DNA of 64,000 bases from Lentisphaerota bacterium (lineage in GTDB: Bacteria; Verrucomicrobiota; Kiritimatiellia; RFP12; UBA1067). The notes beneath the pieces were generated by a model, which made no database searches, was not told the DNA's origin, and saw nothing but the letters and a program-made list of their open reading frames with translations. The stretch spans positions 17,275-81,274 of the forward strand of contig SUWC01000004.1 of the NCBI GenBank assembly GCA_015061665.1. The letters are read 5' to 3'. Both the position numbers and the translations under genes were made by a program. Within the stretch, counting starts at the first letter, position 1. Every line of letters starts with the position of its first letter. Below are positions 32,334 to 43,591 of this stretch, in pieces.

Positions 32334-32472
32334 TCATTCAACCCGACCGTCAATGCAGATTTTACTTTCAAAGTAAAAATTACATATTGAGACAACGCGT
32401 CGACGCCGAGGCCCGAAAGTCGCGCAAAGCGCAAAACTTGCCGCCATGGACTATGCAGAGACGCTTGTCTCG

Positions 32473-32649
32473 TCAAAGTACGATTCGGTTCAGACACAAC
32501 AAGGCATTCGCCTTAGGTTCACCGCCCATGCTTGCTTTCAACAGCCATTCGCGAGCTAGCTCGTCATTCTTCTTTACGCATTCACCCTCGTAATACGCTG
32601 AACCTACAACAAACTGCATCAAAGCGACACAAGAGCCATATCCAACCAT
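32473..32649 (-). pseudogene. Single Sel1-like repeat ORF (58 codons), probably a remnant of a larger Sel1/TPR gene
   Basis: My translation is MVGYGSCVALMQFVVGSAYYEGECVKKNDELAREWLLKASMGGEPKANALLCLNRIVL. The YYEGxGVxKNxxxAxxWxxKAxxxG pattern is Sel1-like. Upstream frames are broken by stops. Confidence 0.3.
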
Positions 32650-32876
32650 CCTGAGACAGCAGTTTTTCGCGCCAAAGGCACGGCCTTTTCAGGTCGCCTG
32701 TCGGTTCAAATGCTGATAGTGCTGTTTGTATGAACACGACCACATTCACACAAACTCCCCAAGCTAAATTACGATGCTCGAACTTGTACATCATTTTGCG
32801 GCTGGCGTATCTGTCACACCCGTGCTCCGTTCAGCAATGAGGTGAGGTGATTTTCATTATTTCTCCTGTATTTGTC

Positions 32877-33644
32877 TTACCACACGAACCCTGGCGCGCC
32901 CGGCTTGGAATGCTTGCTGGTTTTGATCGGATTCTTCGGATGCGCCGCGTTATATTCTCTCACGCGGTCTATCCCGAAGCGTCCCGCGATTTCATCGCCG
33001 CTCATTCCGCCTCGCTTCAGTTCCTCCATCTGACGGAAGTCTGAAGTCTGCGCCAGCGGGAGCTTCTTGCGATTCTTCTCGTACGCCTCGTTTGCTTCAC
33101 GAGCGTTCTTGAATGCGTCCTCGATATCGGCTTTCTTTCCCGGCGTAAGTTCAGGTTCCTTGTGCATTGGAGGCGGTTTCGGCTTCTTGCGACGGGCAGA
33201 CCTTGGCGGCCTTTTTCCCTTTTCAATTGACTCGACGCCGTCCTTCGTCTTATTTTTCCCTTTCCCAAGAACTAGTTCGTATTTCTGGATCAGGAGACGA
33301 TCTTGCATCAGGTCTTTGGCGACGCCCTTCGGCATCATGCGCGGCCATGAAATCTCGTCTGTTGCTCTGTAATATACAATCTGATACTTTGTCCAGCTTT
33401 GAACATCAAGCAGCATCAGGTCGCATATTCCGCTCGTCTCATCGAAGTACGATTCGGTGAGTCCGTAATGGTCGAGCTTGGCGCGATAGCGGCTCTTGAC
33501 ATTCGCCAACGCCCCCGCAATCGCCTCTTCAGCACTTCGCGGATAAGCATTGTTTAGACCATGCGCACTCCCCGCGCAAAGGCATGCGGCAAGCGACAAA
33601 ACCGCCGCCGCAGACCTCACACCTATCTTACACATGTTTTTCAC
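32877..33644 (-). CDS. Hypothetical lipoprotein (Lys/Pro-rich middle)
   Basis: 255 aa with a signal peptide and lipobox-like LSLAAC. GTG at 33644, or ATG at 33635. It starts 13 nt downstream of the preceding gene on the same strand. Confidence 0.6.
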   Translation of the reverse strand: MKNMCKIGVRSAAAVLSLAACLCAGSAHGLNNAYPRSAEEAIAGALANVKSRYRAKLDHYGLTESYFDETSGICDLMLLDVQSWTKYQIVYYRATDEISWPRMMPKGVAKDLMQDRLLIQKYELVLGKGKNKTKDGVESIEKGKRPPRSARRKKPKPPPMHKEPELTPGKKADIEDAFKNAREANEAYEKNRKKLPLAQTSDFRQMEELKRGGMSGDEIAGRFGIDRVREYNAAHPKNPIKTSKHSKPGAPGFVW

Positions 33645-33657
33645 TGCCTCTTATCAC

Positions 33658-34551
33658 TCAGTAAAGTTTCATACGACCCATGCGGTCGTAGATCTGCTCC
33701 GCATCGTGGTGGCGAGAGTCGTCCATCTGTTTCATACGATCGTAAATCTGCTCCGCATCGTGGTGCCGGGAGTCGTCAATCTGTTTCATACGATCGTAAA
33801 CCTGTGACGCATCGTGGTGACGTATGTCGTCATTCTCGACAATACGTGCAAAGCCATGCATCACGACAATGAATATGCAGAACAGAATGGCAGGGCATAT
33901 CCATTGCGTATCAATCTCCTTCCCGCACAGCAGATTCACGGATATGAACCTGAACATCAGGTAATCGACGACAATCCAGATTGTAAAGGCCCAAACAATA
34001 TACCCATAAACGCCAAGGGCTGCTATTTGCAGCCCCATCGGCATCAGCAAGGACAGCGCAATATTGACGAAAATCGGAATCATCCAAGATGAACGCATGT
34101 TAGATGCTGAAAGTTCGGGAAGAAGATTGCCGACGGCAAATCTCTTATAACCCCACCATGCAAGACGCCAAGACATATATATACCGCCTATCCATGCGGC
34201 ATATACTACAATATGCGCCATGCGCTCCGGGAAATCCTTTGGCCAGTCCGCAAACGGCGCGCAACCAATGAGGCTTCCGACAAAACCACCGAGTAATCCC
34301 AAAACGAACGACACAACAAAGACAATCAGCAGTCGCGCAAACCAATACTTCGCCCATGCTTTAAGGCATGCAGATTCAGGCGGGACGTCCACTTGTTCGG
34401 ACGTCTCATTGTCAGGTCTCACCATTTGCGCTCTCGTTTGCCGCGCTCCAGCGACAAACCCTTTGCCGCAAACCTGGCAAGTGACGTACTTGCCAAATTC
34501 GCGCTGTTCTATATCATACTCCGTTCCGCAGTGCGGGCAATTGATGTTCAT
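33658..34551 (-). CDS. Zinc-ribbon polytopic membrane protein with C-terminal His-rich repeats
   Basis: 297 aa with an AAGGAGG SD. The N-terminus MNINCPHCGTEYDI...VTCQVCGKGF carries two CxxC motifs, followed by about 6 hydrophobic spans and 3.6 x 14-aa repeats. Confidence 0.7.
   Translation of the reverse strand: MNINCPHCGTEYDIEQREFGKYVTCQVCGKGFVAGARQTRAQMVRPDNETSEQVDVPPESACLKAWAKYWFARLLIVFVVSFVLGLLGGFVGSLIGCAPFADWPKDFPERMAHIVVYAAWIGGIYMSWRLAWWGYKRFAVGNLLPELSASNMRSSWMIPIFVNIALSLLMPMGLQIAALGVYGYIVWAFTIWIVVDYLMFRFISVNLLCGKEIDTQWICPAILFCIFIVVMHGFARIVENDDIRHHDASQVYDRMKQIDDSRHHDAEQIYDRMKQMDDSRHHDAEQIYDRMGRMKLY
33679..33831 (-). repeat. 42-bp in-frame tandem repeat (about 3.6 copies) encoding DDxRHHDA(E/S)Q(I/V)YDRMKQ(I/M)
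   Basis: The repeated unit ctgtttcatacgatcgtaaatctgctccgcatcgtggtg... is visible in the forward sequence at 33679-33831. Confidence 0.9.
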
Positions 34552-34562
34552 TTGTTTCCTCC

Positions 34563-36938
34563 TTATTGAAGAGCTGTTTCAGCTGGTATATCTTCTGGCT
34601 CAATTCTAATCAACAATTCTTGAGTAAGAGGCGCGACAGTGGATAGGCGTGTTGCCTGTCGTTCTATCGTCTTTTCAAAAAGATTTCGCACATATCTTCC
34701 ATTCCCAAAGTGACTGTCTTTCCTTGACAAGGCCGATGAAACTACAGTATGCAATTTTTCTATCGCGGCCTTCGTCATTTCATACTGATTAGACGTAACA
34801 GATGCCATGTAAATTTCGCACAACTCTTCCTCTGTGTAGTCAGGAAAATTTATGTAGCGATTGAATCGCGATCTCAACCCAGGATTAGCATTGATGAAAC
34901 ACTCCATTTCTCCAGTATAACCAGCAAGGACAACAACGAGTCTATCTCTATCGTCCTCCATCCGTTTAAGCAAAGTATTTATCGCCTCTTTGCCGTAATC
35001 TTCTTTGCCGCCATCTACAAGAGAATATGCCTCATCAATAAACAATACGCCATCTAACGCTTCATCAACAATTTTATTCGTCTTAATTGCAGTCTGCCCA
35101 ACATATTCCCCCACGAGTCCTGAACGATCGGTTTCAACAAGATGGCCCTTCTTCAACACGCCCAACTCCCCAAAAATCCGAGCAAGAATTCGTGCAACGG
35201 ACGTTTTCCCCGTTCCCGGATTTCCTGTGAAAACACAATGACATGAAATATTGGCTACTTTTAGCCCGCTATTTTCTCTGGATTTCTGTATGCGTATGAA
35301 ATTTGAGAGTCTTATAACCTCGTTTTTAACAGAACTCAATCCAATTAATTTATCTAACTCGTCGAAGGCGGAAGTAACGGCGAAATTCTTTATCGAGTTT
35401 GCACATAATCCTGCTGCAGGCGAGTATAAGATTTGACCATCGCTAAATTTCATTAGAGATGCAAGGCAATCGCTTTCCTCGGCAGTGATTTTACCATCAG
35501 CCTTAGCAATGATTGACGCGAGACGATATGTCAGAACAGCATGTCGCCTACAAATATCTTGAGCACATGACGAGAACAGAGTTTGAAATAAAGGCGGCTC
35601 GTTCAACTTGTTGATTATCCCGTGAAGTGAACATATTGTATCCGCAGCCCATATGGAGAGTTCCTCTCGCACTTTACTGTTCTGCAACTCTTTTAATCCG
35701 ACATCATATGCTATCATCTTACACAGCACCAATATGACACCCAATCCTTCCAAGTTGGAATAATCGTCAATCGCATATCCTAACCGCAAGTATGTTTGCA
35801 ACAAATCTTCTATCGCTACATAGAACATTCTGCGATGCTGACATACCAAGCCTTCTATCTCTATCTTGTCGGCGAGATCTATCGCTTTGCTGGCAGACAA
35901 GACCTTGTTGGCATCTTCGTTCTCATCAAGCTCTTTGAAAAAGCTTACCAGTTCATGAGCTGCCCTGTTTATCACCTCAAAATATGCCGGTTCAATCGTA
36001 CTCTTCAGTTCTTTAAGCCGAGAAGGTCGTTTATTTGTTCGTACAAAATTTGGCGGGTCTTCTTCATCCCGTGATAACAATACAGATATCCAGTTGGGAA
36101 TTTTCGCAGAATCCATAAATGACAATGCATTACATATCACGGGCGCCAATACATTTCCAAACTTGTACGTTTTATTTCCATTGGGCGAATCTGTATTTAT
36201 TGTCAATATTATATTATTGGCACTTGCGCTTGAAATCTCTTCTATTGCCGTTTCCATTTCCCTGTGTTCATTTTTAAAACACATCCGATAATCGGTCAAC
36301 AAGAGGTCTCCTTTTTCTTCGCTGTCTCCATGAACGAACGCAGCCTGATCCTGACAATACAACACGCGTTCCTCATCATAGACCCTTATATTTGTTGTAT
36401 TCTCCATCACATGGCATTTGCCACAATTCAACAAATCCTGATACCATTCACCGTACGCATTCAAGAGAGAATGTATTAGCTCTGCCGTTTCACTTGGAAC
36501 AACGCCGTCATTAACAGCGCGTTCAATAAGTTCATGTTCTTCTTTCGCATGATTTTTCGTATCGAAGCCCTGTCTCACATATTTTGCCCCATCGATACGT
36601 TTTAGTAGCCCAATACAGGTGTACATTATATTTCCGTTTCCCCCAACATGTACACTTGCAGTTCCTTGGGTTATTTCAATCCCGTCAGGGCCAATGTAAT
36701 TGACATTAATATCCGATAGCGGTATGTCCGTAATTCCATGAGTGGTGATGTCAAACACCACTCTCTTGTTTGTAATAAAAAACTTCCCAACGGTCTCTGC
36801 TATCGAGCTGTTAGCGTCATAGTAAAACACAAACTCATTGGGCATGCATTTCAGCGGCGCATTTCTGACCGTCCGAAAGGACTCATGTGCCTCAAAGTCA
36901 TTCATCCATTTTTTAAATTCCAATTCTAAGTTATTCAT
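34563..36938 (-). CDS. Multidomain AAA+ ATPase: two PH/GRAM-like modules + TerB-like module + SpoVK/CbbX-type AAA+
   Basis: 791 aa with an AAGGAGG SD. The C-terminus reads LDKLIGLSSVKNEV...FTGNPGTGKTSVAR (Walker A), VLFIDEAYSL (Walker B), NPGLRSRF and GNGRYVRN. The middle carries IAKADGKITAEESDCL (TerB-like). The N-terminus carries GKFFITNKRVVF and GDLLLTDYRMCF. Confidence 0.85.
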   Translation of the reverse strand: MNNLELEFKKWMNDFEAHESFRTVRNAPLKCMPNEFVFYYDANSSIAETVGKFFITNKRVVFDITTHGITDIPLSDINVNYIGPDGIEITQGTASVHVGGNGNIMYTCIGLLKRIDGAKYVRQGFDTKNHAKEEHELIERAVNDGVVPSETAELIHSLLNAYGEWYQDLLNCGKCHVMENTTNIRVYDEERVLYCQDQAAFVHGDSEEKGDLLLTDYRMCFKNEHREMETAIEEISSASANNIILTINTDSPNGNKTYKFGNVLAPVICNALSFMDSAKIPNWISVLLSRDEEDPPNFVRTNKRPSRLKELKSTIEPAYFEVINRAAHELVSFFKELDENEDANKVLSASKAIDLADKIEIEGLVCQHRRMFYVAIEDLLQTYLRLGYAIDDYSNLEGLGVILVLCKMIAYDVGLKELQNSKVREELSIWAADTICSLHGIINKLNEPPLFQTLFSSCAQDICRRHAVLTYRLASIIAKADGKITAEESDCLASLMKFSDGQILYSPAAGLCANSIKNFAVTSAFDELDKLIGLSSVKNEVIRLSNFIRIQKSRENSGLKVANISCHCVFTGNPGTGKTSVARILARIFGELGVLKKGHLVETDRSGLVGEYVGQTAIKTNKIVDEALDGVLFIDEAYSLVDGGKEDYGKEAINTLLKRMEDDRDRLVVVLAGYTGEMECFINANPGLRSRFNRYINFPDYTEEELCEIYMASVTSNQYEMTKAAIEKLHTVVSSALSRKDSHFGNGRYVRNLFEKTIERQATRLSTVAPLTQELLIRIEPEDIPAETALQ

Positions 36939-36999
36939 CCTACTAATCCTCCTTGATTGACTCTCAGTAATGACCGATCTTCATTTTACTAATCGGCGC

Positions 37000-37467
37000 T
37001 TACGACTTACCGATATCTTGATAATGTTGAAGCCCAGCCTTATGTATGCCATAGCTGGCCATGGCACATATAGTAAAAAGAATGACACTTGTCCCTGTAT
37101 TCTCTATAAAGTACTTTCCCACCCAAAAGCCAAGGTATCCCCATGAAACGGAGGCGAGGATACAGAAGAACGCTGACAGCTTAGGGATGCACACACCCAC
37201 AGCTAATAATAATAGAACTGCACCAAAACACCACCATGAACTTGCGGCAAAACCAGCCGCAATAGACAACAACAATATTTCACACCAAACAAAGCCTGCC
37301 ATCTCTTCATTAAGCTTGGCGTCCGTGATGCCTCTGCGGACTGAACTTGACATTGACGCAGGCTTTCCCACAAACACCTTACTACAAGCGCCGCAAATGA
37401 TATTCTGACCGTACAGTGAATCATCAAACGTATTTTCTACCCCGCAATATGGACAATTCAATTTCAT
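37000..37467 (-). CDS. Zinc-ribbon membrane protein (4 TM), paralogous N-terminus to 33658-34551
   Basis: 155 aa: MKLNCPYCGVENTF...IICGACSKVF followed by four hydrophobic spans. It starts 3 nt after the FRG gene stop. Confidence 0.7.
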   Translation of the reverse strand: MKLNCPYCGVENTFDDSLYGQNIICGACSKVFVGKPASMSSSVRRGITDAKLNEEMAGFVWCEILLLSIAAGFAASSWWCFGAVLLLLAVGVCIPKLSAFFCILASVSWGYLGFWVGKYFIENTGTSVILFTICAMASYGIHKAGLQHYQDIGKS

Positions 37468-37470
37468 AGT

Positions 37471-38493
37471 TTACCTCGGCTTTCCATCTTTTAAATCGCA
37501 CAAGTTTTGCCTCTCCCTAAGCCCCAATATTCTGTCGTTGTACCGTACACTCTTCGCTATTCCATCTATATCAGGGTAGATGGTTGCCGCGTTGATGTTC
37601 GCCTGATTAAGCATACGCCACGCATCATCCTCCATTTCAGGATCAAACACAAACTTTATGATCGAACTAGGGAAAAGGATTTCCTCGCAAGGAGTTTTCG
37701 AGACCGACCCCATCCTAACCTCAGGCGGATCGTCGATATCTTTAATCGGCACGTCGAATACCGCTGCAAGATTTTTTGTGAATCCGTCAAATGTGCAAGG
37801 CATCAATTCAATACCTGACTGCGCCATCTGACGCATGTTGAAGCGTGCCTTGTATAGCGGGATGATTCCCATGCCTTTATCGCCATTACCATTGTTTATG
37901 TTTTCTTCCGCCAGTTGCAGCATAAACTTGTGAAAATAATAATTGTCAATCTGTGACTCAATCTCCCACCAGACCTCTTCATCGCCTCGCTTCATCAAAT
38001 CAGAACGCTTTGCGTCCTTCAGATACCTACCTTTCCAGCCGCTTCGTTCTATCAGCATTTTATAGTTGATTGCATATATGGCACGCCCCTCACCCGTCAT
38101 CTTCTCCTCGTACGCAAAGAACAAGGCAACCATTATTGATGTCGTAAAATCCAGAAGCCTTGTTTTAGCTCCATAATGCTGCATGGCCAGAAGCGCGGAA
38201 GTATTCGTTGTCCATCCCTCAAATTCGTGGGCCTTTGCCCTAAAATTGGCAACGGCAAAATGCTCCGCCCTTGGCAATGTGAGCGCAAAAGACTTTACAT
38301 CAGTTTTCATTCCGCGCTTTTCTCGGGCGGTAACAATATCTGCAATATACCTGTCAAGGCCACTATCAAGATGATACGAAACCGACTTATGGCCTCTGAA
38401 AATCCAGCGACCATCACCCATGATCTTCATGACTTTAGTGAAGTCACGCCAATTGTGCAGTTTTATTGTACCTGTCTTCGGTCGTTCAGTCAT
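37471..38493 (-). CDS. FRG-domain protein
   Basis: 340 aa: RWIFRGHKSVSYHLDSGLDR, LLAMQHYGAKTRLLDFTTSIMVALFFA and FNMRQMAQSGIEL match the FRG-domain blocks. Confidence 0.85.
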   Translation of the reverse strand: MTERPKTGTIKLHNWRDFTKVMKIMGDGRWIFRGHKSVSYHLDSGLDRYIADIVTAREKRGMKTDVKSFALTLPRAEHFAVANFRAKAHEFEGWTTNTSALLAMQHYGAKTRLLDFTTSIMVALFFAYEEKMTGEGRAIYAINYKMLIERSGWKGRYLKDAKRSDLMKRGDEEVWWEIESQIDNYYFHKFMLQLAEENINNGNGDKGMGIIPLYKARFNMRQMAQSGIELMPCTFDGFTKNLAAVFDVPIKDIDDPPEVRMGSVSKTPCEEILFPSSIIKFVFDPEMEDDAWRMLNQANINAATIYPDIDGIAKSVRYNDRILGLRERQNLCDLKDGKPR

Positions 38494-38506
38494 AGCTCTT
38501 CCTCTC

Positions 38507-38564
38507 CCGCGCCTACCCTACTGGGAGCCGCCGCTTTGGCGCGGAAAAGGAAAGCGGCGCACCC
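38507..38564. repeat. 58-nt structured repeat, copy 1 (in the divergent region between the FRG operon and the ATPase gene)
   Basis: ccgcgcctaccctactgggagccgccgctttggcgcggaaaaggaaagcggcgcaccc. It is 53/58 identical to 39859-39916. Confidence 0.9.
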
Positions 38565-38613
38565 ATATCGTCCGAAATTTCCAGACAAAAATTGAAAATG
38601 TATCTTCGCCCCA

Positions 38614-38642
38614 TTGACTGGGGACAGCGAATATGATATATT
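38614..38642 (+). promoter_or_regulatory. Sigma70 promoter TTGACT-17 nt-(TGa)TATATT for the 38694 ATPase gene
   Basis: TTGACT at 38614-38619, 17-nt spacer, TATATT at 38637-38642 with TG at -14/-15. Confidence 0.5.
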
Positions 38643-38654
38643 TATCCGTGTAAT

Positions 38655-38673
38655 TTCAACAGTAAATGTTGAA
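38655..38673. promoter_or_regulatory. Perfect 7-bp inverted repeat TTCAACA-5 nt-TGTTGAA between promoter and SD (operator candidate)
   Basis: ttcaaca gtaaa tgttgaa at 38655-38673. Confidence 0.3.
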
Positions 38674-38693
38674 TTTGCAAGAATGGAGGCGGT

Positions 38694-39839
38694 ATGGCAT
38701 ACATAAAACGACGACTTGAAGAAAGCGTACGGCGGGCACTTGAGAGGAATCCGGTGGCTGCCGTGATAGGTCCGCGCCAGTGTGGAAAATCCACATTGGT
38801 GAAGCATCTCCGCGAAGATACGGTGCCATCCGTCTACCTCGACCTTGAACGGCCGTCCGACCTTGCAAAATTGTCCGATCCGGAATTGTTCTTTTCCCGT
38901 CACAAGGACAAACTTATTTGCATTGACGAAATACAGCGCAGAGGCGATTTGTTCCCGGTCATAAGAAGCCTTTGCGACGATTGGGGCGGCAACGGACATT
39001 TTCTTGTGCTCGGCTCCGCCTCGCGCGATCTCATCCGCCAGAGTTCCGAATCCCTGGCCGGACGCATCCGCTATGAACGGCTGACTCCGTTCCTTATTTC
39101 CGAACTTGACGGCGCAGACTGGACAAAGTGCCTTTCCCGAGGCGGATTTCCCCGCGCCTATCTCGCATCCGACGACGATGAATCGAATGAGTGGCATGAG
39201 TCTTTCATCCAGACGTTTCTCGAACGGGATCTTCTGTTCTGGCGTGACTTCGTACCGGAGACGATGCGGCGTCTCTGGAAGATGCTTGCGCACGAAAACG
39301 CCCAGATGATCAACTACTCTCGTCTTGCGGCATCGCTTGGCGTGTCCGACATGACAATCAGGCGATATGTCGATCTTCTCAAAGAGACTTTCATGGTAGA
39401 TGTCGTTCCGCCGTACATATCCAATCTCGGCAAGCGGCTCGTGAAAACGCCAAAAGTCTATCTCTGCGACACAGGGCTGACGTGCGCCCTCCTTGGACTC
39501 AAGTCTTTCGACGAACTTTACGCGCATCCCGCATTCGGAGGATGCTGGGAACAGATGGTTCTGGCAAATGTCAGGGGACTTTATCCAGACGCAGACGTCT
39601 CTTTCTACCGGACATCCGCCGGAGCCGAAATGGATTTTGTCGTCAAGAAAGGCCAGCGGACGGTGGCGCTCGAGTGCAAGGCGTCGTCTGCGCCCTCTGT
39701 CGGAAGGGGCACCTACAGCGCGCTTGACGCGATTCGCCCGGACGCAGCGTATGTCGTGGCACCTGTCGAAGAGACCTACGCGCTCAACGACAGAATCACG
39801 GCTATCCCGCTGTCCGGGCTTGGCGACATATTCGCTTGA
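38694..39839 (+). CDS. COG1373-type ATPase (AAA_14 + DUF4143)
   Basis: 381 aa with a GGAGG SD. Walker A GPRQCGKST, Walker B-like LICIDEIQ, and a C-terminal DUF4143-like region (YxxLLxxxF..., GAEMDFVV). Confidence 0.85.
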   Translation: MAYIKRRLEESVRRALERNPVAAVIGPRQCGKSTLVKHLREDTVPSVYLDLERPSDLAKLSDPELFFSRHKDKLICIDEIQRRGDLFPVIRSLCDDWGGNGHFLVLGSASRDLIRQSSESLAGRIRYERLTPFLISELDGADWTKCLSRGGFPRAYLASDDDESNEWHESFIQTFLERDLLFWRDFVPETMRRLWKMLAHENAQMINYSRLAASLGVSDMTIRRYVDLLKETFMVDVVPPYISNLGKRLVKTPKVYLCDTGLTCALLGLKSFDELYAHPAFGGCWEQMVLANVRGLYPDADVSFYRTSAGAEMDFVVKKGQRTVALECKASSAPSVGRGTYSALDAIRPDAAYVVAPVEETYALNDRITAIPLSGLGDIFA

Positions 39840-39858
39840 CGGCACCTTCATCTCCTTT

Positions 39859-39916
39859 CCGCGCCTACCTGACTGGGTGCTGCCGCTTTGGCGCGGAAAA
39901 GAAAAGCGGCGCACCC
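39859..39916. repeat. 58-nt structured repeat, copy 2 (20 nt after the ATPase stop)
   Basis: ccgcgcctacctgactgggtgctgccgctttggcgcggaaaagaaaagcggcgcaccc. Confidence 0.9.
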
Positions 39917-40474
39917 TCGAAATCCCGTCTCGTGGCAGGTGCCGCTAAGAACCTTAACGAAAAACGAGAAAGGAGGGTACGCCGCGTGATTGCCACGCGA
40001 CGCACCATCGTATTCGGTTTTTCGTTGTGTAAAGTTAGCGGCTTTGCCACGAAACCCAATACGCTGATGTTGCGTACATGCTGCGGGCGTCGGATGCGTT
40101 TCCGCAACTCCCTGGAACGGCGCGCTCGGTGATCGCGCCCTGCCAACGGCGACACGACGATCTTCTCGCGGCCTACCGTCGGCGGCGGCTTTATCGAAAC
40201 GGCCCTGCCGGGGTTTTGGCCAGCACACGGATGCGCCGGCCCGAAGGTTCTCCAAACATTGCAAAATAGGTCAGACCTTCTGTGCAGTGTTAGCGAACCA
40301 ATGACAAAGAACAAGTCGCCCCGCTTGCGCGGAACACCTATATTGTAGCAAAAAAACTTTCTTTTGTGCGCTTCGAAATTATCCACAAGAGTTTCCTCCA
40401 CATGGATATTTCCTGAAAATGCAAAAATCTGACAGGGGAATGTTAAAACACTCAGGACGTAATGCAAAAAAAAC

Positions 40475-41587
40475 TCAATACCAAGGTAGAAGACCCTGTT
40501 TCATGAGCTCCTTGGCTGCTTCCCTGTCGAGCAGTACGGACTCCCCCACCTCGTTCGTCGTTTCTATCATTGCGTCACGATACATGTCATACGTAGCGTC
40601 CAGCAACGCCTCGGCAATCGTATCCTTGATCAACGTCCTGTTTTCATTCTCTGTGCCCTCGATGACGCCCCGGTTCTCTTGCAGAGCTTCCGGCTGTGAA
40701 CACGACCAATCCTTTCGCGTCAATGCAGCTAAAATCGCCGATACGCCTACCGCCGCCAACACCACCGCGGCTGCACATGTCCACCATCTGGCCTCATGGC
40801 GGTGGCGCACTGCCCGCGCGAATTCGGAGACTGACGCATACCGCTGTTCGGGAATCGAACTTGTCGAACGCCTGATAATCCTGGCCCATGCCTTCGGCGG
40901 CTTCCCGTCAAAGCAGACATTCGCCAACATCCCGAGTGCATGGATGTCCGTCGCGGGGCCAATCTTGCCGCCCGCAAACTGCTCAGGCGCCGAAAACCCT
41001 GGAGTTCCGACGCCTACGGCACGCCCATCGACAACGGACACAGTGTCGCTGCACATCTGCGACACGTCCTCGTCTTCCTTCGCAAGCCCCAAGTCGATAA
41101 GAACGCATTCGCCGGTCGAAGGCCGCATCATCACATTGCGCGGCTTGATGTCACGATGGATGAATCCGCGCTTATGCAATTCCTCCACGGCGCGCGCCAC
41201 GCCGAGCACATAGGCGGCAACCGCCGCATCGCCGCGAGGGAGTTCCATCGGCTCAAGCAGTTCTTCGGTCAGGTAAAGACGCCCCGAATCTTCGCCCGCG
41301 TCATAGAACTTCGGGAACGCCGTGCCGGACAGCTCCGCCGCGAGCCGGGCCTCCCGCCTGAATCGCACACGGGCCTTGTCGCCGGCGCGATAAAGCACCT
41401 TCAATGCGCCGACAATTCCTGTTGCGGCATTTTCGGCGCGATATACTTCCGCGCTTCCGCCGCGGCCAAGGAAAGCAAGGGCCTTCCAGCCGCCGACTGC
41501 GGAACCGGGCGCCGCGCCCGGCGGCGGCTCGAAGCGCCCATGCTGGCGCAGGCGCCGCTCAAGCTCGCTTTCCGTCGCATCAGGCAT
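40475..41587 (-). CDS. Ser/Thr protein kinase with C-terminal TM anchor and short extracytoplasmic tail
   Basis: 370 aa: GRGGSAEVY, ALK, HRDIKPRNVMM, DLGLA, GTPGFSAPE, then the TM segment WWTCAAAVVLAAVGVSAILAAL. Confidence 0.9.
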   Translation of the reverse strand: MPDATESELERRLRQHGRFEPPPGAAPGSAVGGWKALAFLGRGGSAEVYRAENAATGIVGALKVLYRAGDKARVRFRREARLAAELSGTAFPKFYDAGEDSGRLYLTEELLEPMELPRGDAAVAAYVLGVARAVEELHKRGFIHRDIKPRNVMMRPSTGECVLIDLGLAKEDEDVSQMCSDTVSVVDGRAVGVGTPGFSAPEQFAGGKIGPATDIHALGMLANVCFDGKPPKAWARIIRRSTSSIPEQRYASVSEFARAVRHRHEARWWTCAAAVVLAAVGVSAILAALTRKDWSCSQPEALQENRGVIEGTENENRTLIKDTIAEALLDATYDMYRDAMIETTNEVGESVLLDREAAKELMKQGLLPWY

Positions 41588-42167
41588 CGCCAGCCTCCTC
41601 CAGTGTGCGCACGATTTCGCGGAGCCGTGCGAGCATGCGGCTCTTTGTCTTGTCGACGTTGTTGCGGTTTGTGCCGTATTCGGCAGCTACCTCGTCAGGC
41701 GAAACACCGTCAACAGTCAGCCGCTGGAATATCTGCTTCGACTTTTCGGGTATCTTGTCATCGTCCAGAATCTGCCGCATGGCGATTTCAAGAACCGCGT
41801 CCTTCCAGGAGTCCGAATCGTCCGGCGTGCCGAACGCCTCGCCTGCCTCAGCCAGTTCCTTTAATTCTGCCTTTGCAGTTCTTTCCTTAGTCGCTTTTTC
41901 GCACTGCTTCAGAGCCTTCCTGCGGAGAATGCCAGTGAGATAGTTCCTGAAGCGACCGGTCTCGTCCGGAGCGTACCGATAGCCGTGTATCACATTCGAA
42001 AGCGCAATCAACGTCTCCTGCACCGTGTCGTCGGCATCGACAGCCGGAAAATGTGACTTCATGTACGCCTGCATCATTGGTCGGTACCGGGCGACAAACT
42101 CCGTCCAGCGCGCATTCTCACCGTTTGCAATGCCTTTCAGAAGCGTAGTTGACGTTTCGGGTATCAT
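41580..42167 (-). CDS. ECF-type RNA polymerase sigma factor
   Basis: 195 aa: TSTTLLKGIANGENARWTEFVARYRPMM, region 2 DDTVQETLIAL, and a region 4 HTH. Its stop overlaps the kinase start by 8 nt. Confidence 0.9.
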   Translation of the reverse strand: MIPETSTTLLKGIANGENARWTEFVARYRPMMQAYMKSHFPAVDADDTVQETLIALSNVIHGYRYAPDETGRFRNYLTGILRRKALKQCEKATKERTAKAELKELAEAGEAFGTPDDSDSWKDAVLEIAMRQILDDDKIPEKSKQIFQRLTVDGVSPDEVAAEYGTNRNNVDKTKSRMLARLREIVRTLEEAGDA

Positions 42168-42289: not shown

Positions 42290-43591
42290 TCATTGCGGCT
42301 CCAAAATCCATTTCCAGACAGGTACTATCCTGATTCCGTCGGACTCGCGTTCTTCGTCCCATGTTACGACAGTGCAGTCTTGTACCTTGATTTCGCCTCT
42401 CGCATCTTTCAGCGCCGTCAACTCGCGCCGCACGGTCTCAGAATCCGAAAGCTCCCATGAAACTTGCACAAGACGGCGTTTCTTCGTCACCCTGTCAGTC
42501 ACAAGGAAGTCTACCTCGTCTCCTTTCCGGGTGTTGTAGTATTCGATCTTGTTGAACCCTCGCCGCAAGGCCATGAATACGAGATTCTCAAGAAGCCATC
42601 CACGGGACGCATCGCTCTTTGGTGTCACCGCGCGGGCAAGCCCGGTGTCGACGAGATAGAACTTGTCGGGGTTCATCCTCCGCACGGCAAGCGAATCCGT
42701 GCGAATCGGGACTCTGTAAACGAGATAGGCCTGCTCAAGCCAGTCGAGATAGTCCGCAATGTACTCACGGCTGTCGGAGAGCCCCAGTCCCTTCAAGACT
42801 CCGGATATCGCGCGAGTCGATATCTTATGCGCAAAATTATGCTTGATGTAATCCAGTGTGTAGCGAAGCGACTGCACGCTCGGCACATCATGACGCTCGA
42901 TAATATCCCGATAGAGCACGGCGTCAACATATCCCTGCAGCGTCTTCACGCGGATGCGGAAATCGTCGCCTTGTACATCCGGGAAACCGCCTTCTTCCAA
43001 GTATCGCTGCATCGCATGCCGCAGCACACCGGCCATCCGCGATGAGTATGGGGCCACCGGAATCTCCCCAACAAGGGCATTAAAGCGCAAGAACTCGGCA
43101 AAGGACAGCGGGAACACCTCGACGTCAATTGAACGGCCGCGCATTTGAGTCGCAATCTCGCCCGAGAGCATCTTCGACGACGATCCTGTCAGGCAGAGCT
43201 GCACCAAGTGCGAATCCAAAAGCCTGCGGGCATATAGCTCCCACCCGTCGATGTCTTGAAGTTCATCAAGAAAATACCAGCACCTCTCCCTTGCCGCCTC
43301 CGGAAACATCTCGGCATGGACGCCGCCAATCAGCTTCAGATGCTCAAGCTTGACGCCTTTTAGCCGATCGTCGTCAAAATTGACGTGGACAATCCGCTCC
43401 AGCGGAACGCCTTCCTCGACAAGCGCGCGCATCCTCTGGTATGTGACGTATGTCTTCCCCGTTCGCCGCATTCCAGTGACAACAGTCGCAGAATTACGCT
43501 TTTCAAAATAATCGACATCGCGAGGGCGAACGTCTTCGGGTATTCCGAATTCGTAAAACTCGCGCATTATCTCTCCAATGACTGCTTTCAT
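42290..43591 (-). CDS. COG1373-type ATPase (AAA_14 + DUF4143), second copy
   Basis: 433 aa: Walker A GMRRTGKT, WYFLDELQ, and a C-terminal GDEVDFLV block. Confidence 0.85.
   Translation of the reverse strand: MKAVIGEIMREFYEFGIPEDVRPRDVDYFEKRNSATVVTGMRRTGKTYVTYQRMRALVEEGVPLERIVHVNFDDDRLKGVKLEHLKLIGGVHAEMFPEAARERCWYFLDELQDIDGWELYARRLLDSHLVQLCLTGSSSKMLSGEIATQMRGRSIDVEVFPLSFAEFLRFNALVGEIPVAPYSSRMAGVLRHAMQRYLEEGGFPDVQGDDFRIRVKTLQGYVDAVLYRDIIERHDVPSVQSLRYTLDYIKHNFAHKISTRAISGVLKGLGLSDSREYIADYLDWLEQAYLVYRVPIRTDSLAVRRMNPDKFYLVDTGLARAVTPKSDASRGWLLENLVFMALRRGFNKIEYYNTRKGDEVDFLVTDRVTKKRRLVQVSWELSDSETVRRELTALKDARGEIKVQDCTVVTWDEERESDGIRIVPVWKWILEPQ

Follow-up and report, generated by a model that had tools for sequence, protein, structure and literature searches.

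Five closely packed genes in a 64,000-nucleotide stretch of a Lentisphaerota metagenome-assembled genome (contig SUWC01000004.1; the whole stretch is referred to below as the window) raise the question of whether they constitute a dedicated, undescribed system. In order of transcription, they encode an FRG-domain protein, a small membrane protein with a zinc ribbon (ZnTM155), a large AAA+ ATPase, a second zinc-ribbon membrane protein (ZnTM297), and a lipoprotein-like secreted protein (Table 1). The GenBank product names for these genes are only "AAA family ATPase," "FRG domain-containing protein," and "hypothetical." A preliminary description, made from the DNA alone, had put the five forward as one candidate system. 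That proposal stands in part: the genes are real, operonic, and foreign, but the parts separate even within one narrow lineage. The comparison presented here shows, as far as sequences can, that the five genes are one state of a fast-rearranging mosaic accessory locus with separable parts, and no fixed five-gene machine.

A foreign operon

The positions of the five co-directional minus-strand genes, and the gaps of 3, 61, 11, and 13 nt between them (from FRG to the lipoprotein), were reproduced exactly. The strong Shine-Dalgarno sequences reported earlier are also present: AAGGAGG is found upstream of the start codons of the ATPase and ZnTM297 genes, and each of the other three genes has a purine-rich ribosome-binding site. 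Related loci from about 20 gut-metagenome contigs (labeled L0xx) served as the comparison set. Against these, the ratio of nonsynonymous to synonymous substitution rates (dN/dS) was 0.07 for FRG (vs L001), 0.12 for the ATPase, 0.26 for ZnTM297 (vs L005), and 0.19 for the lipoprotein, which indicates purifying selection. Tight spacing, ribosome-binding sites, and purifying selection together identify a real operon. Its G+C content is 0.46 for FRG, 0.44 for ZnTM155, 0.42 for the ATPase, 0.50 for ZnTM297, and 0.54 for the lipoprotein gene, the richest of the five, as had been remarked. In contrast, the flanking DXS and AIRS genes have 0.62-0.68 and most of the window has about 0.63-0.67. The five genes are a genuine, compositionally foreign, horizontally acquired operon. 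The 64-kb window has no tRNA gene as an island boundary, and no integrase or transposase was seen among the open reading frames (ORFs) scanned at 28-44 kb.

A mosaic locus with a constant frame

In every contig examined, the module has a G+C content of 0.39-0.46 within flanks of 0.49-0.65 (mostly 0.57-0.65), and the flanks of L001, L004, L005, and L007-L009 have nothing in common with the window even by tblastx. A low-GC module in higher-GC, unrelated flanks argues that it has moved between backbones. In L030-35, the block is directly bordered by insertion sequences (IS) and Y1 transposases, and strain-level indels, IS insertions, and differing protein lengths are frequent among the relatives.

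Some of these relatives look like what a single obligate defense system, with all five proteins acting together, would leave behind. The five-gene order recurs in L027-29, with ZnTM155 cut to 58 aa, and in L006 as far as that short contig reaches. Moreover, L030/32/34/35 retain FRG, ZnTM155, ATPase, and ZnTM297 ahead of an IS element that cuts ZnTM297 at residue 240, the lipoprotein being gone. Operonic packing and purifying selection on all four testable genes point the same way. However, close relatives have lost FRG, ZnTM155, the ZnTM297 tail, or the lipoprotein, each independently and with the remaining genes intact. FRG is lost in L005, L009, L031, and L033; in L031/33 it is down to a 97-aa remnant, and in L005 most of FRG and ZnTM155 has been deleted. 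ZnTM155 is intact in L030-35, reduced by deletion to the 58-aa product in L006 and L027-29, and absent from L001-3, L005, L009, and L036. The ATPase is found in the absence of FRG in L004, L005, L009, L031, and L033.

The converse arrangement was found in L036/L037, two loci retrieved with FRG as bait. These retain a sigma factor gene, a kinase gene, and a noncoding leader (97% identical), all three of which lie upstream of FRG in the window, as well as FRG (97%) and the lipoprotein (86%). The middle is different: in place of ZnTM155, the ATPase, and ZnTM297 stand Zn201, a 201-aa ribbon protein with two transmembrane (TM) segments and a SHOCT domain; p506, a 506-aa membrane-anchored Sel1-repeat protein with a C terminus resembling a domain of the lipoprotein; and Zn219, a 219-aa ribbon protein with one TM segment. 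An ATPase is absent. The DNA recombination joint between the two cassettes falls at the ribbon, at 34446-34563 of the window. Since L036/L037 carry a different cassette between FRG and the lipoprotein, and the window keeps remnants of it (see below), the comparison shows what appears to be a constant frame with a recombining middle. The frame consists of the extracytoplasmic function (ECF) sigma factor, the membrane Ser/Thr kinase, the structured leader, FRG, and, at the far end, the lipoprotein; the swappable cassette between them consists of proteins that share an N-terminal zinc ribbon, apparently of the MJ0042 type. The synonymous divergence (dS) between the window and L001 is 1.84 for FRG and 0.90 for the ATPase, with a leader 92% identical, and this two-fold difference implies recombination within the locus.

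How widely the genes travel together was a further claim at stake. The combination recurs, as described above, but is confined to one narrow lineage of gut metagenome contigs at 77-97% DNA identity, and full-length relatives of the ATPase (58-96% identity) were found only in metagenome contigs. Among GTDB species genomes there were only relatives of the ATPase middle domain, in Bacteroidales and lacking the partner genes; the locus is not conserved across Lentisphaerota. A JGI metagenome scan returned nothing beyond a contig already in the set, and IMG/VR scans gave no match. Phage GenBank records gave none for ZnTM155 and two weak matches for FRG, and the best plasmid match is a Bacteroides record with a lone gene among housekeeping genes.

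Table 1. Features of the locus, with positions in the window
Feature	Position	Strand	Size or extent	Basis
ECF-type sigma factor, first gene of frame	41580-42167	-	195 aa	Pfam Sigma70_r2 (5e-7) and r4_2
Membrane-anchored Ser/Thr protein kinase	40475-41587	-	370 aa	Pfam Pkinase (1.3e-26)
Conserved structured noncoding leader, distal part	39853-40144	-		Conservation and folding
Terminator-like hairpin in leader	40006-39976	-	14 bp	Folding
Insertion with AAA_14/DUF4143 ATPase gene (gene 38694-39839, PADLOC PDC-S01); not part of module	38565-39852	+		Direct repeats, Pfam, PADLOC
Proximal leader copy, hairpin predicted to pair with FRG ribosome-binding site	38494-38564	-		Folding
FRG-domain protein	37471-38493	-	340 aa	ORF list
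FRG domain	38098-38409	-	aa 29-132	Pfam FRG
ZnTM155	37000-37467	-	155 aa	ORF list
ZnTM155 zinc ribbon	37366-37467	-		C5/C8/C25/C28
ATPase	34563-36938	-	791 aa	ORF list
PH-like module 1	36564-36851	-	~aa 30-125	Fold level
PH-like module 2	36099-36416	-	~aa 175-280	Fold level
Orphan helical middle domain	35439-36041	-	aa 300-500	Model, pLDDT 89
CbbX/SpoVK-type AAA+ and lid	34578-35381	-	aa 520-787	Pfam AAA and AAA_lid_6
ZnTM297	33658-34551	-	297 aa	ORF list
ZnTM297 zinc ribbon	34450-34551	-		CxxC-x16-CxxC
Three tandem His-rich repeats of ZnTM297	33679-33840	-	54 nt (18 aa) each	DD(S/I)RHHDA(E/S)Q(I/V)YDRMKQ(M/I)
Lipoprotein-like secreted protein, GTG start	32877-33644	-	255 aa	ORF list
Decayed remnants of alternative cassette (Sel1-protein and lipoprotein fragments)	32463-32857	-		blastx

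Zinc-ribbon membrane proteins

Both ZnTM155 and ZnTM297 begin with a CxxC-x16-CxxC ribbon, and all four Cys residues are invariant across the six ribbons aligned. Profile scores fall slightly under cutoff (26.0 vs 30.3 for Zn_ribbon_4 and 20.0 vs 20.9 for TIGR02098; ZnTM297 matches Zn_ribbon_4 at 9e-6, also under cutoff), so that the zinc ribbons originally called in both proteins are borne out by the four-Cys pattern, with narrowly subthreshold profile scores. The GenBank form of ZnTM155 (MBE6381684.1) is a 117-aa protein that starts at Met39 and leaves out the CxxC...CxxC ribbon. The 155-aa start is supported, because the ribbon is conserved and 155-aa forms occur in other contigs. The membrane part of ZnTM155 matches phrog_15014 at 2e-18.

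The TM counts had been set somewhat high. By a crude hydropathy scan, two segments of ZnTM155 exceed the threshold and about three to four can be made out by eye, which leaves the proposed four uncertain; for ZnTM297, about five replace the proposed six (four above threshold and a fifth by eye, with five in the L005 orthologue). The His-rich repeats of ZnTM297 are present as three 18-aa copies. Intact orthologues range from 275 to 299 aa, which suggests that repeat number varies between strains. The IS-truncated forms in L030/32/34/35 are 241 aa long and end just ahead of the repeats.

The ribbon stays conserved while the rest of the protein differs. In L001-3, the downstream partner (337 aa in L001) has the same ribbon on a different body, a helical protein of ~280 aa with one C-terminal TM segment (tail anchored), where the window has a multi-TM body. 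A ribbon-protein gene lies directly 3' of the ATPase gene in the window, L001-3, L005, L006, and L027-35. In addition, the ATPase N-terminal module is fused to two ribbons and an L001-type body in one relative (P0009), and another member of the ATPase family (P0028) has a C-terminal Zn_ribbon_4. By adjacency and by these two independent fusions, the ATPase thus appears to be repeatedly linked to ribbon proteins.

The AAA+ ATPase

The AAA+ call for the large protein held up. Pfam AAA and AAA_lid_6 both exceed cutoff in the C terminus, and the module aligns with CbbX at 2e-62 and with EccA1 at 6e-58. Every motif is intact in the alignment with CbbX: Walker A GNPGTGKT, Walker B VLFIDEAY, pore loop EYVGQT, arginine finger PGLRSRF, and sensor 2 FGNGRYVRN. 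The protein was considered as a CbbX, SpoVK, or EccA orthologue and rejected as all three, because it scores below every NCBIfam equivalog cutoff (306.4 vs 422.95, 262.6 vs 466.65, and 240.1 vs 459.25 bits, respectively). The likeness to this clade, which includes the red-type Rubisco activase, the sporulation chaperone, and the ESX-1 component EccA1, resides in the AAA+/AAA_lid_6 module. In contrast, the 520-aa N-terminal region of the window protein, with its tandem PH-like modules and orphan helical domain, has no equivalent in CbbX, SpoVK, or EccA.

That region (aa 1-520) has no Pfam match even at E ≤ 10. A full-length model built on a shallow alignment (eight sequences) reached a predicted local distance difference test (pLDDT) score of 46 and was used for fold-class hints only. 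It has two modules, each of seven strands and a C-terminal helix, and its Foldseek matches are mostly of the PH fold, many of them tandem PH or PH-GRAM proteins (BBS5 at 3e-6, Rtt106, Pob3, MTMR2, and Lam6). Relatives give weak CheF-arch and Vps36-GLUE matches. A tandem PH/GRAM-like N-terminal module is therefore plausible from the model: the earlier PH/GRAM call has support at the level of fold but no Pfam match in the window protein. The tandem-PH N-terminal module was found in only about 6 of 1.84 billion cluster representatives.

The TerB-like assignment first proposed for the middle domain was not confirmed. Pfam TerB has no match in the window ATPase even at E ≤ 10, and 4 of 30 relatives match it, all at E ≥ 0.05 (best E 0.052). 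A model of aa 300-500 built from 30 diverse sequences reached pLDDT 89 and has no significant structural match in the Protein Data Bank (PDB; none at E < 0.6, and TerB is not represented in the 50 matches listed) or in the viral-structure set BFVD. An AKADGxIxxxE motif aligns with the TerB-like structure 2ou3 at E 1.1. After profile, PDB-sequence, and two Foldseek searches, we rejected a TerB fold, the AKADG...E motif being all that is shared. The middle domain is a confidently modeled helical fold that lacks a solved or viral structural relative, and we found no published description of its ATPase family.

In the wider family, this domain always stands ahead of the same AAA+ module, behind variable N termini (HARE-HTH, FtsK-gamma, DUF4236, TM, or PH). 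The combination is common in Bacteroidales (L011, L012, and L026), where such genes stand singly in housekeeping surroundings and the N terminus is often of the DUF4236 or TM kind; none of the partner genes is nearby. One family member, P0038 (L024 632-4990), joins a TM segment, one PH-like module, and the middle domain and lacks the AAA+ module; downstream of its gene come a GmrSD_N (DUF262) gene and one for an ion channel, a defense-like context.

The FRG protein

The FRG call was confirmed by Pfam (64.7 bits vs a cutoff of 25; 1.5e-17; profile positions 2-90 of 94) and by 15 PADLOC PDC-S15 models (best 3.5e-32), which cover the C-terminal ~200 aa only partly. The protein also matches phrog_4962 at 4e-20 across aa 9-319. 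The earlier statement that FRG is of unknown biochemistry is out of date: according to PMC9503650, the Aravind group has assigned FRG to the ADP-ribosyltransferase (ART) superfamily and sees in it a possible NADase and effector against viruses (Burroughs & Aravind 2020, as cited there and in bioRxiv 10.1101/2024.07.30.605764). The window protein is thus predicted to be an ART-like, NAD+-consuming enzyme.

Sigma factor, kinase, and leader

The preliminary description did not mention the ECF sigma/Ser-Thr kinase pair directly upstream of the module, or the conserved leader. The sigma and kinase genes overlap by 8 nt and are co-directional with the operon, and the pair is also upstream of the module in L027-L036. 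The kinase is 87.7% identical to that of L030-35 and 66-72% identical to that of L027-29, where the module is 92-97% identical; across three backbones, the pair as a whole is 66-88% identical vs 92-97% for the module. In the L036 orthologue of the kinase, a single TM helix follows the kinase domain. Control of a neighboring locus by an ECF sigma/Ser-Thr kinase pair is known from EcfK-PknS, with a type VI secretion system, and from EcfP-PknT, with polymyxin resistance (PMC8999054, PMC13147305). The likeness here lies in the arrangement: the sigma and membrane-kinase genes overlap, run in the direction of the operon, and immediately precede it, so that control of the window operon may be proposed by analogy. 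An adjacent Ser/Thr kinase is also a feature of phosphorylation-activated sigma factors of the ECF43 type, but in these an acidic DAED motif has been lost from region 2.2 (PMC8999054). In contrast, region 2.2 of the window sigma factor reads AVDADDTVQETL and keeps an acidic DADD motif.

The leader, of ~290 nt, lies between the kinase gene and FRG and abuts FRG or its remains in L001, L030, L036, L009, and L005. Its distal part is 91-97% identical to L001, L030, and L036 (L001 92%, L036 97%), 87% to L009, and 79% to L005. This exceeds the identity of the adjacent coding genes in L001 (92% vs 77-80%) and L009 (87% vs 75%), but not in L005 (79%). The consensus fold has a predicted energy of -94 kcal/mol with only three covarying pairs. 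In the hairpin of the proximal leader copy, predicted to sequester the FRG ribosome-binding site, CUUUCCUUUUCCGCGCC is predicted to pair with GGCGCGGGAGAGGAAG; the shuffle statistics are weak (z = -2.5 in one locus, -0.8 in another, and +0.2 in a third). An Rfam scan of the window gave no family matching the leader, and no convincing ECF promoter was seen in it by eye.

Possible functions of the locus

We tentatively favor, at slightly less than an even chance, a mosaic operon in which the ATPase is a dedicated remodeler of ribbon-tagged membrane proteins, within a sigma/kinase-controlled conflict or envelope-stress locus. The ATPase would work as a hexameric, pore-threading machine of the CbbX/SpoVK type; its YVG pore loop and the other AAA+ motifs are intact, and SpoVK itself is described as a chaperone dedicated to the activation of MurG (PMC11513918). 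Its tandem PH-like module would dock on the cytoplasmic zinc ribbons of the neighboring membrane proteins, and ATP would be used to assemble, activate, or extract these proteins. The kinase would sense a disturbance of the envelope, for instance by an attacking phage or a damaged membrane, and activate the sigma factor, which would turn the operon on. FRG and the ribbon-tagged membrane proteins would then be the effectors of an abortive-infection-like conflict or of a membrane-stress response. The conflict flavor of this proposal derives from FRG as a PDC-S15 member and predicted ART-like NADase, from the PDC-S01 genes in or beside the locus, and from the frequent strain-level indels and IS insertions.

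Several observations weigh against the remodeler proposal or the frame that it presupposes. Every locus was found by searching from the ATPase or FRG, a bias that affects which parts look constant, and nearly all co-occurrence evidence comes from a single narrow lineage, where shared ancestry, not selection, could explain linkage. L001, L005, and L009 lack the sigma/kinase pair, and L001 has an isocitrate/isopropylmalate dehydrogenase-family gene at the upstream position instead. With the acidic DADD motif retained, the phosphorylation switch of ECF43 cannot be carried over directly, and in the window an inserted DUF4143 gene splits the leader, parting FRG from the distal portion. The PH assignment rests on the pLDDT-46 model. 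No ribbon gene was resolved after the ATPase in L004 (64% identity), L007 (69%), or L008 (the three ranging over 58-69%), and the P0009 fusion could be a deletion artifact of a decaying locus instead of a functional protein. Finally, P0021, the only distant protein with the same ATPase architecture (32% identity), is on a 3.2-kb contig with no partner genes resolved; an alignment-based search for its relatives returned only the known set.

A nonimmune reading, unlikely but deserving a hearing, is an envelope-stress or homeostasis regulon. Here, the sigma/kinase pair would sense membrane or cell-wall damage, the AAA+ chaperone, membrane proteins, and lipoprotein would repair or remodel the envelope, and the His repeats and ribbons might bind metal. 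Such a regulon would fit the sigma/kinase pair directly upstream in several backbones, the mostly membrane, periplasmic (Sel1), or lipoprotein character of the products, and the TerB-like AKADG...E motif in the ATPase middle domain. There are also precedents: MurG, which SpoVK activates, is a membrane-associated cell-wall enzyme (PMC11513918), and phage shock protein (PSP)-type systems bring AAA+ and TM proteins together with zinc ribbons and SHOCT domains (PMC11237479), SHOCT being found here in Zn201. However, foreign origin, patchy distribution, mobility, and heavy strain-to-strain rearrangement would be unusual for a homeostatic regulon, and this locus is not conserved across Lentisphaerota genomes; moreover, the FRG families have been reported from immune contexts.

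Somewhat less credible is the idea that the genes are unrelated neighbors in an insertion hotspot, FRG being self-sufficient, the ATPase and its ribbon protein forming a separate two-gene unit, and adjacency arising from repeated insertion. PADLOC does handle FRG as a single-gene candidate, FRG and the ATPase are each found without the other and differ in dS in a way that points to different histories, and a DUF4143 gene has been inserted into this same locus. Against this, the gap between FRG and ZnTM155 is 3 nt, a single conserved leader precedes the whole string, and exchange of the middle leaves FRG and the lipoprotein in place at either end, which suggests that the genes form a single transcription unit and serve a common purpose.

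The remodeler proposal can be extended to a sigma/kinase-controlled, cassette-swapping membrane conflict system, an improbable elaboration. The shared ribbon would be a docking tag, and interchangeable effectors (multi-TM, tail-anchored coiled-coil, and single- or double-pass proteins) would be loaded or activated by either the PH-domain AAA+ protein or a Sel1-repeat alternative, with FRG and the lipoprotein invariant. Least probable is the obligate five-gene defense system, given that each partner is lost independently, FRG and the lipoprotein also flank a cassette that has no ATPase, the ATPase is retained where FRG is missing, and no co-occurrence was found outside the narrow lineage in the databases searched.

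If the remodeler proposal is true, FRG (PDC-S15) would gain its first genetic context, an ECF sigma/kinase sensor with membrane effectors. The CbbX/SpoVK clade of dedicated activases would gain a new class of client, zinc-ribbon-tagged membrane proteins, and the locus would be a natural case of effector swapping via a conserved N-terminal tag. The significance is limited by the confinement of the locus to an uncultured gut lineage.

Comparison with named systems

The five proteins were scanned against PADLOC, NCBIfam, Pfam, and PHROGs, and in none of these did they match a named multigene system. For the module, PADLOC returns FRG as PDC-S15 and otherwise only generic, weak AAA+ matches (IetA, DolB, and TRIP13, 26-29 bits), in keeping with the original impression that no named defense, toxin-antitoxin, or secretion system is represented. 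PDC-S15 itself is a single-gene candidate; the window FRG protein matches the family profiles but instead heads a polycistronic string, next to a zinc-ribbon membrane gene. IetAS was rejected, since IetA matches at only 14-29 bits on the generic AAA+ core and there is no protease (IetS) gene.

Shango consists of SngA (a TerB-domain protein), SngB (an ATPase), and SngC (a helicase). The superficial likeness is a TerB-like motif tied to an ATPase in the window protein. Shango was rejected: no Shango model is among the PADLOC matches (assuming that PADLOC 2.0.0 includes it), there is no helicase gene, and the TerB fold was unconfirmed.

The PSP-like envelope-stress neighborhoods (PMC11237479) resemble the locus in combining AAA+, zinc-ribbon, SHOCT, and TM proteins under dedicated regulators; in contrast, the PSP markers PspA/Snf7, PspC, Toastrack, and LiaF were not detected in any gene of the locus. 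A published conflict locus in which a SpoVK-family AAA+ gene adjoins a small membrane-protein gene, possibly as a stand-alone cassette, is alike by description. The window differs in having no VWA, McrBC, or CoCoNuT genes, and its partners carry zinc ribbons, not glycine zippers. FRG is from a known candidate family and the AAA+ module from a known clade, but the architecture of the ATPase is rare and new. As far as could be found, the frame-and-cassette organization with a shared ribbon tag is undescribed.

Lipoprotein, cassette remnants, and DUF4143 genes

The last gene probably encodes a lipoprotein, as first called: inspection of the sequence shows the hydrophobic h-region of a signal peptide followed by an L-A-A-C lipobox, both of which L036 shares. 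The protein has orthologues at 75-86% identity in L005, L027-29, and L036. Scans of Pfam, PADLOC, NCBIfam, and PHROGs gave no family match for this protein, and its aa 48-119 domain recurs at the C terminus of p506 in L036. Just downstream, blastx identified the decayed remnants of the alternative cassette. Nucleotides 32491-32637 correspond to p506 aa 312-360 (53% over 49 aa, E 1e-11) and 32678-32767 to p506 aa 21-51 (E 6e-5). At 32463-32489, lipoprotein aa 63-71 are matched at 9 of 9 residues, a weak match (E 0.29), and 32822-32857 is a possible ribbon start with a nonsignificant E of 0.9. The 70-aa and 106-aa ORFs listed in this remnant region are probably no genes.

As the preliminary description had noted, the module sits beside other accessory genes; two of these are AAA_14/DUF4143 genes that match PADLOC PDC-S01. 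The first is in the 1.35-kb insertion that splits the leader, between 58-nt direct repeats at 38507-38564 and 39859-39916 (91% identical). The repeat is single copy in L001, L005, L009, and L030-36, and L027-29 hold an internally deleted remnant of the insertion. This gene family may move as a cassette whose insertion duplicates a long target, or else through recombination at the hairpin of the leader. A 474-aa minus-strand ORF at 38490-39914, antisense to the well-supported DUF4143 gene, was rejected as almost certainly spurious, a high-GC artifact. The second AAA_14/DUF4143 gene, at 42290-43591 on the minus strand (PADLOC PDC-S01, 1.4e-100), is directly upstream of the sigma gene, and its position is taken in L030/32/35 by a Y1 (IS200-like) transposase.

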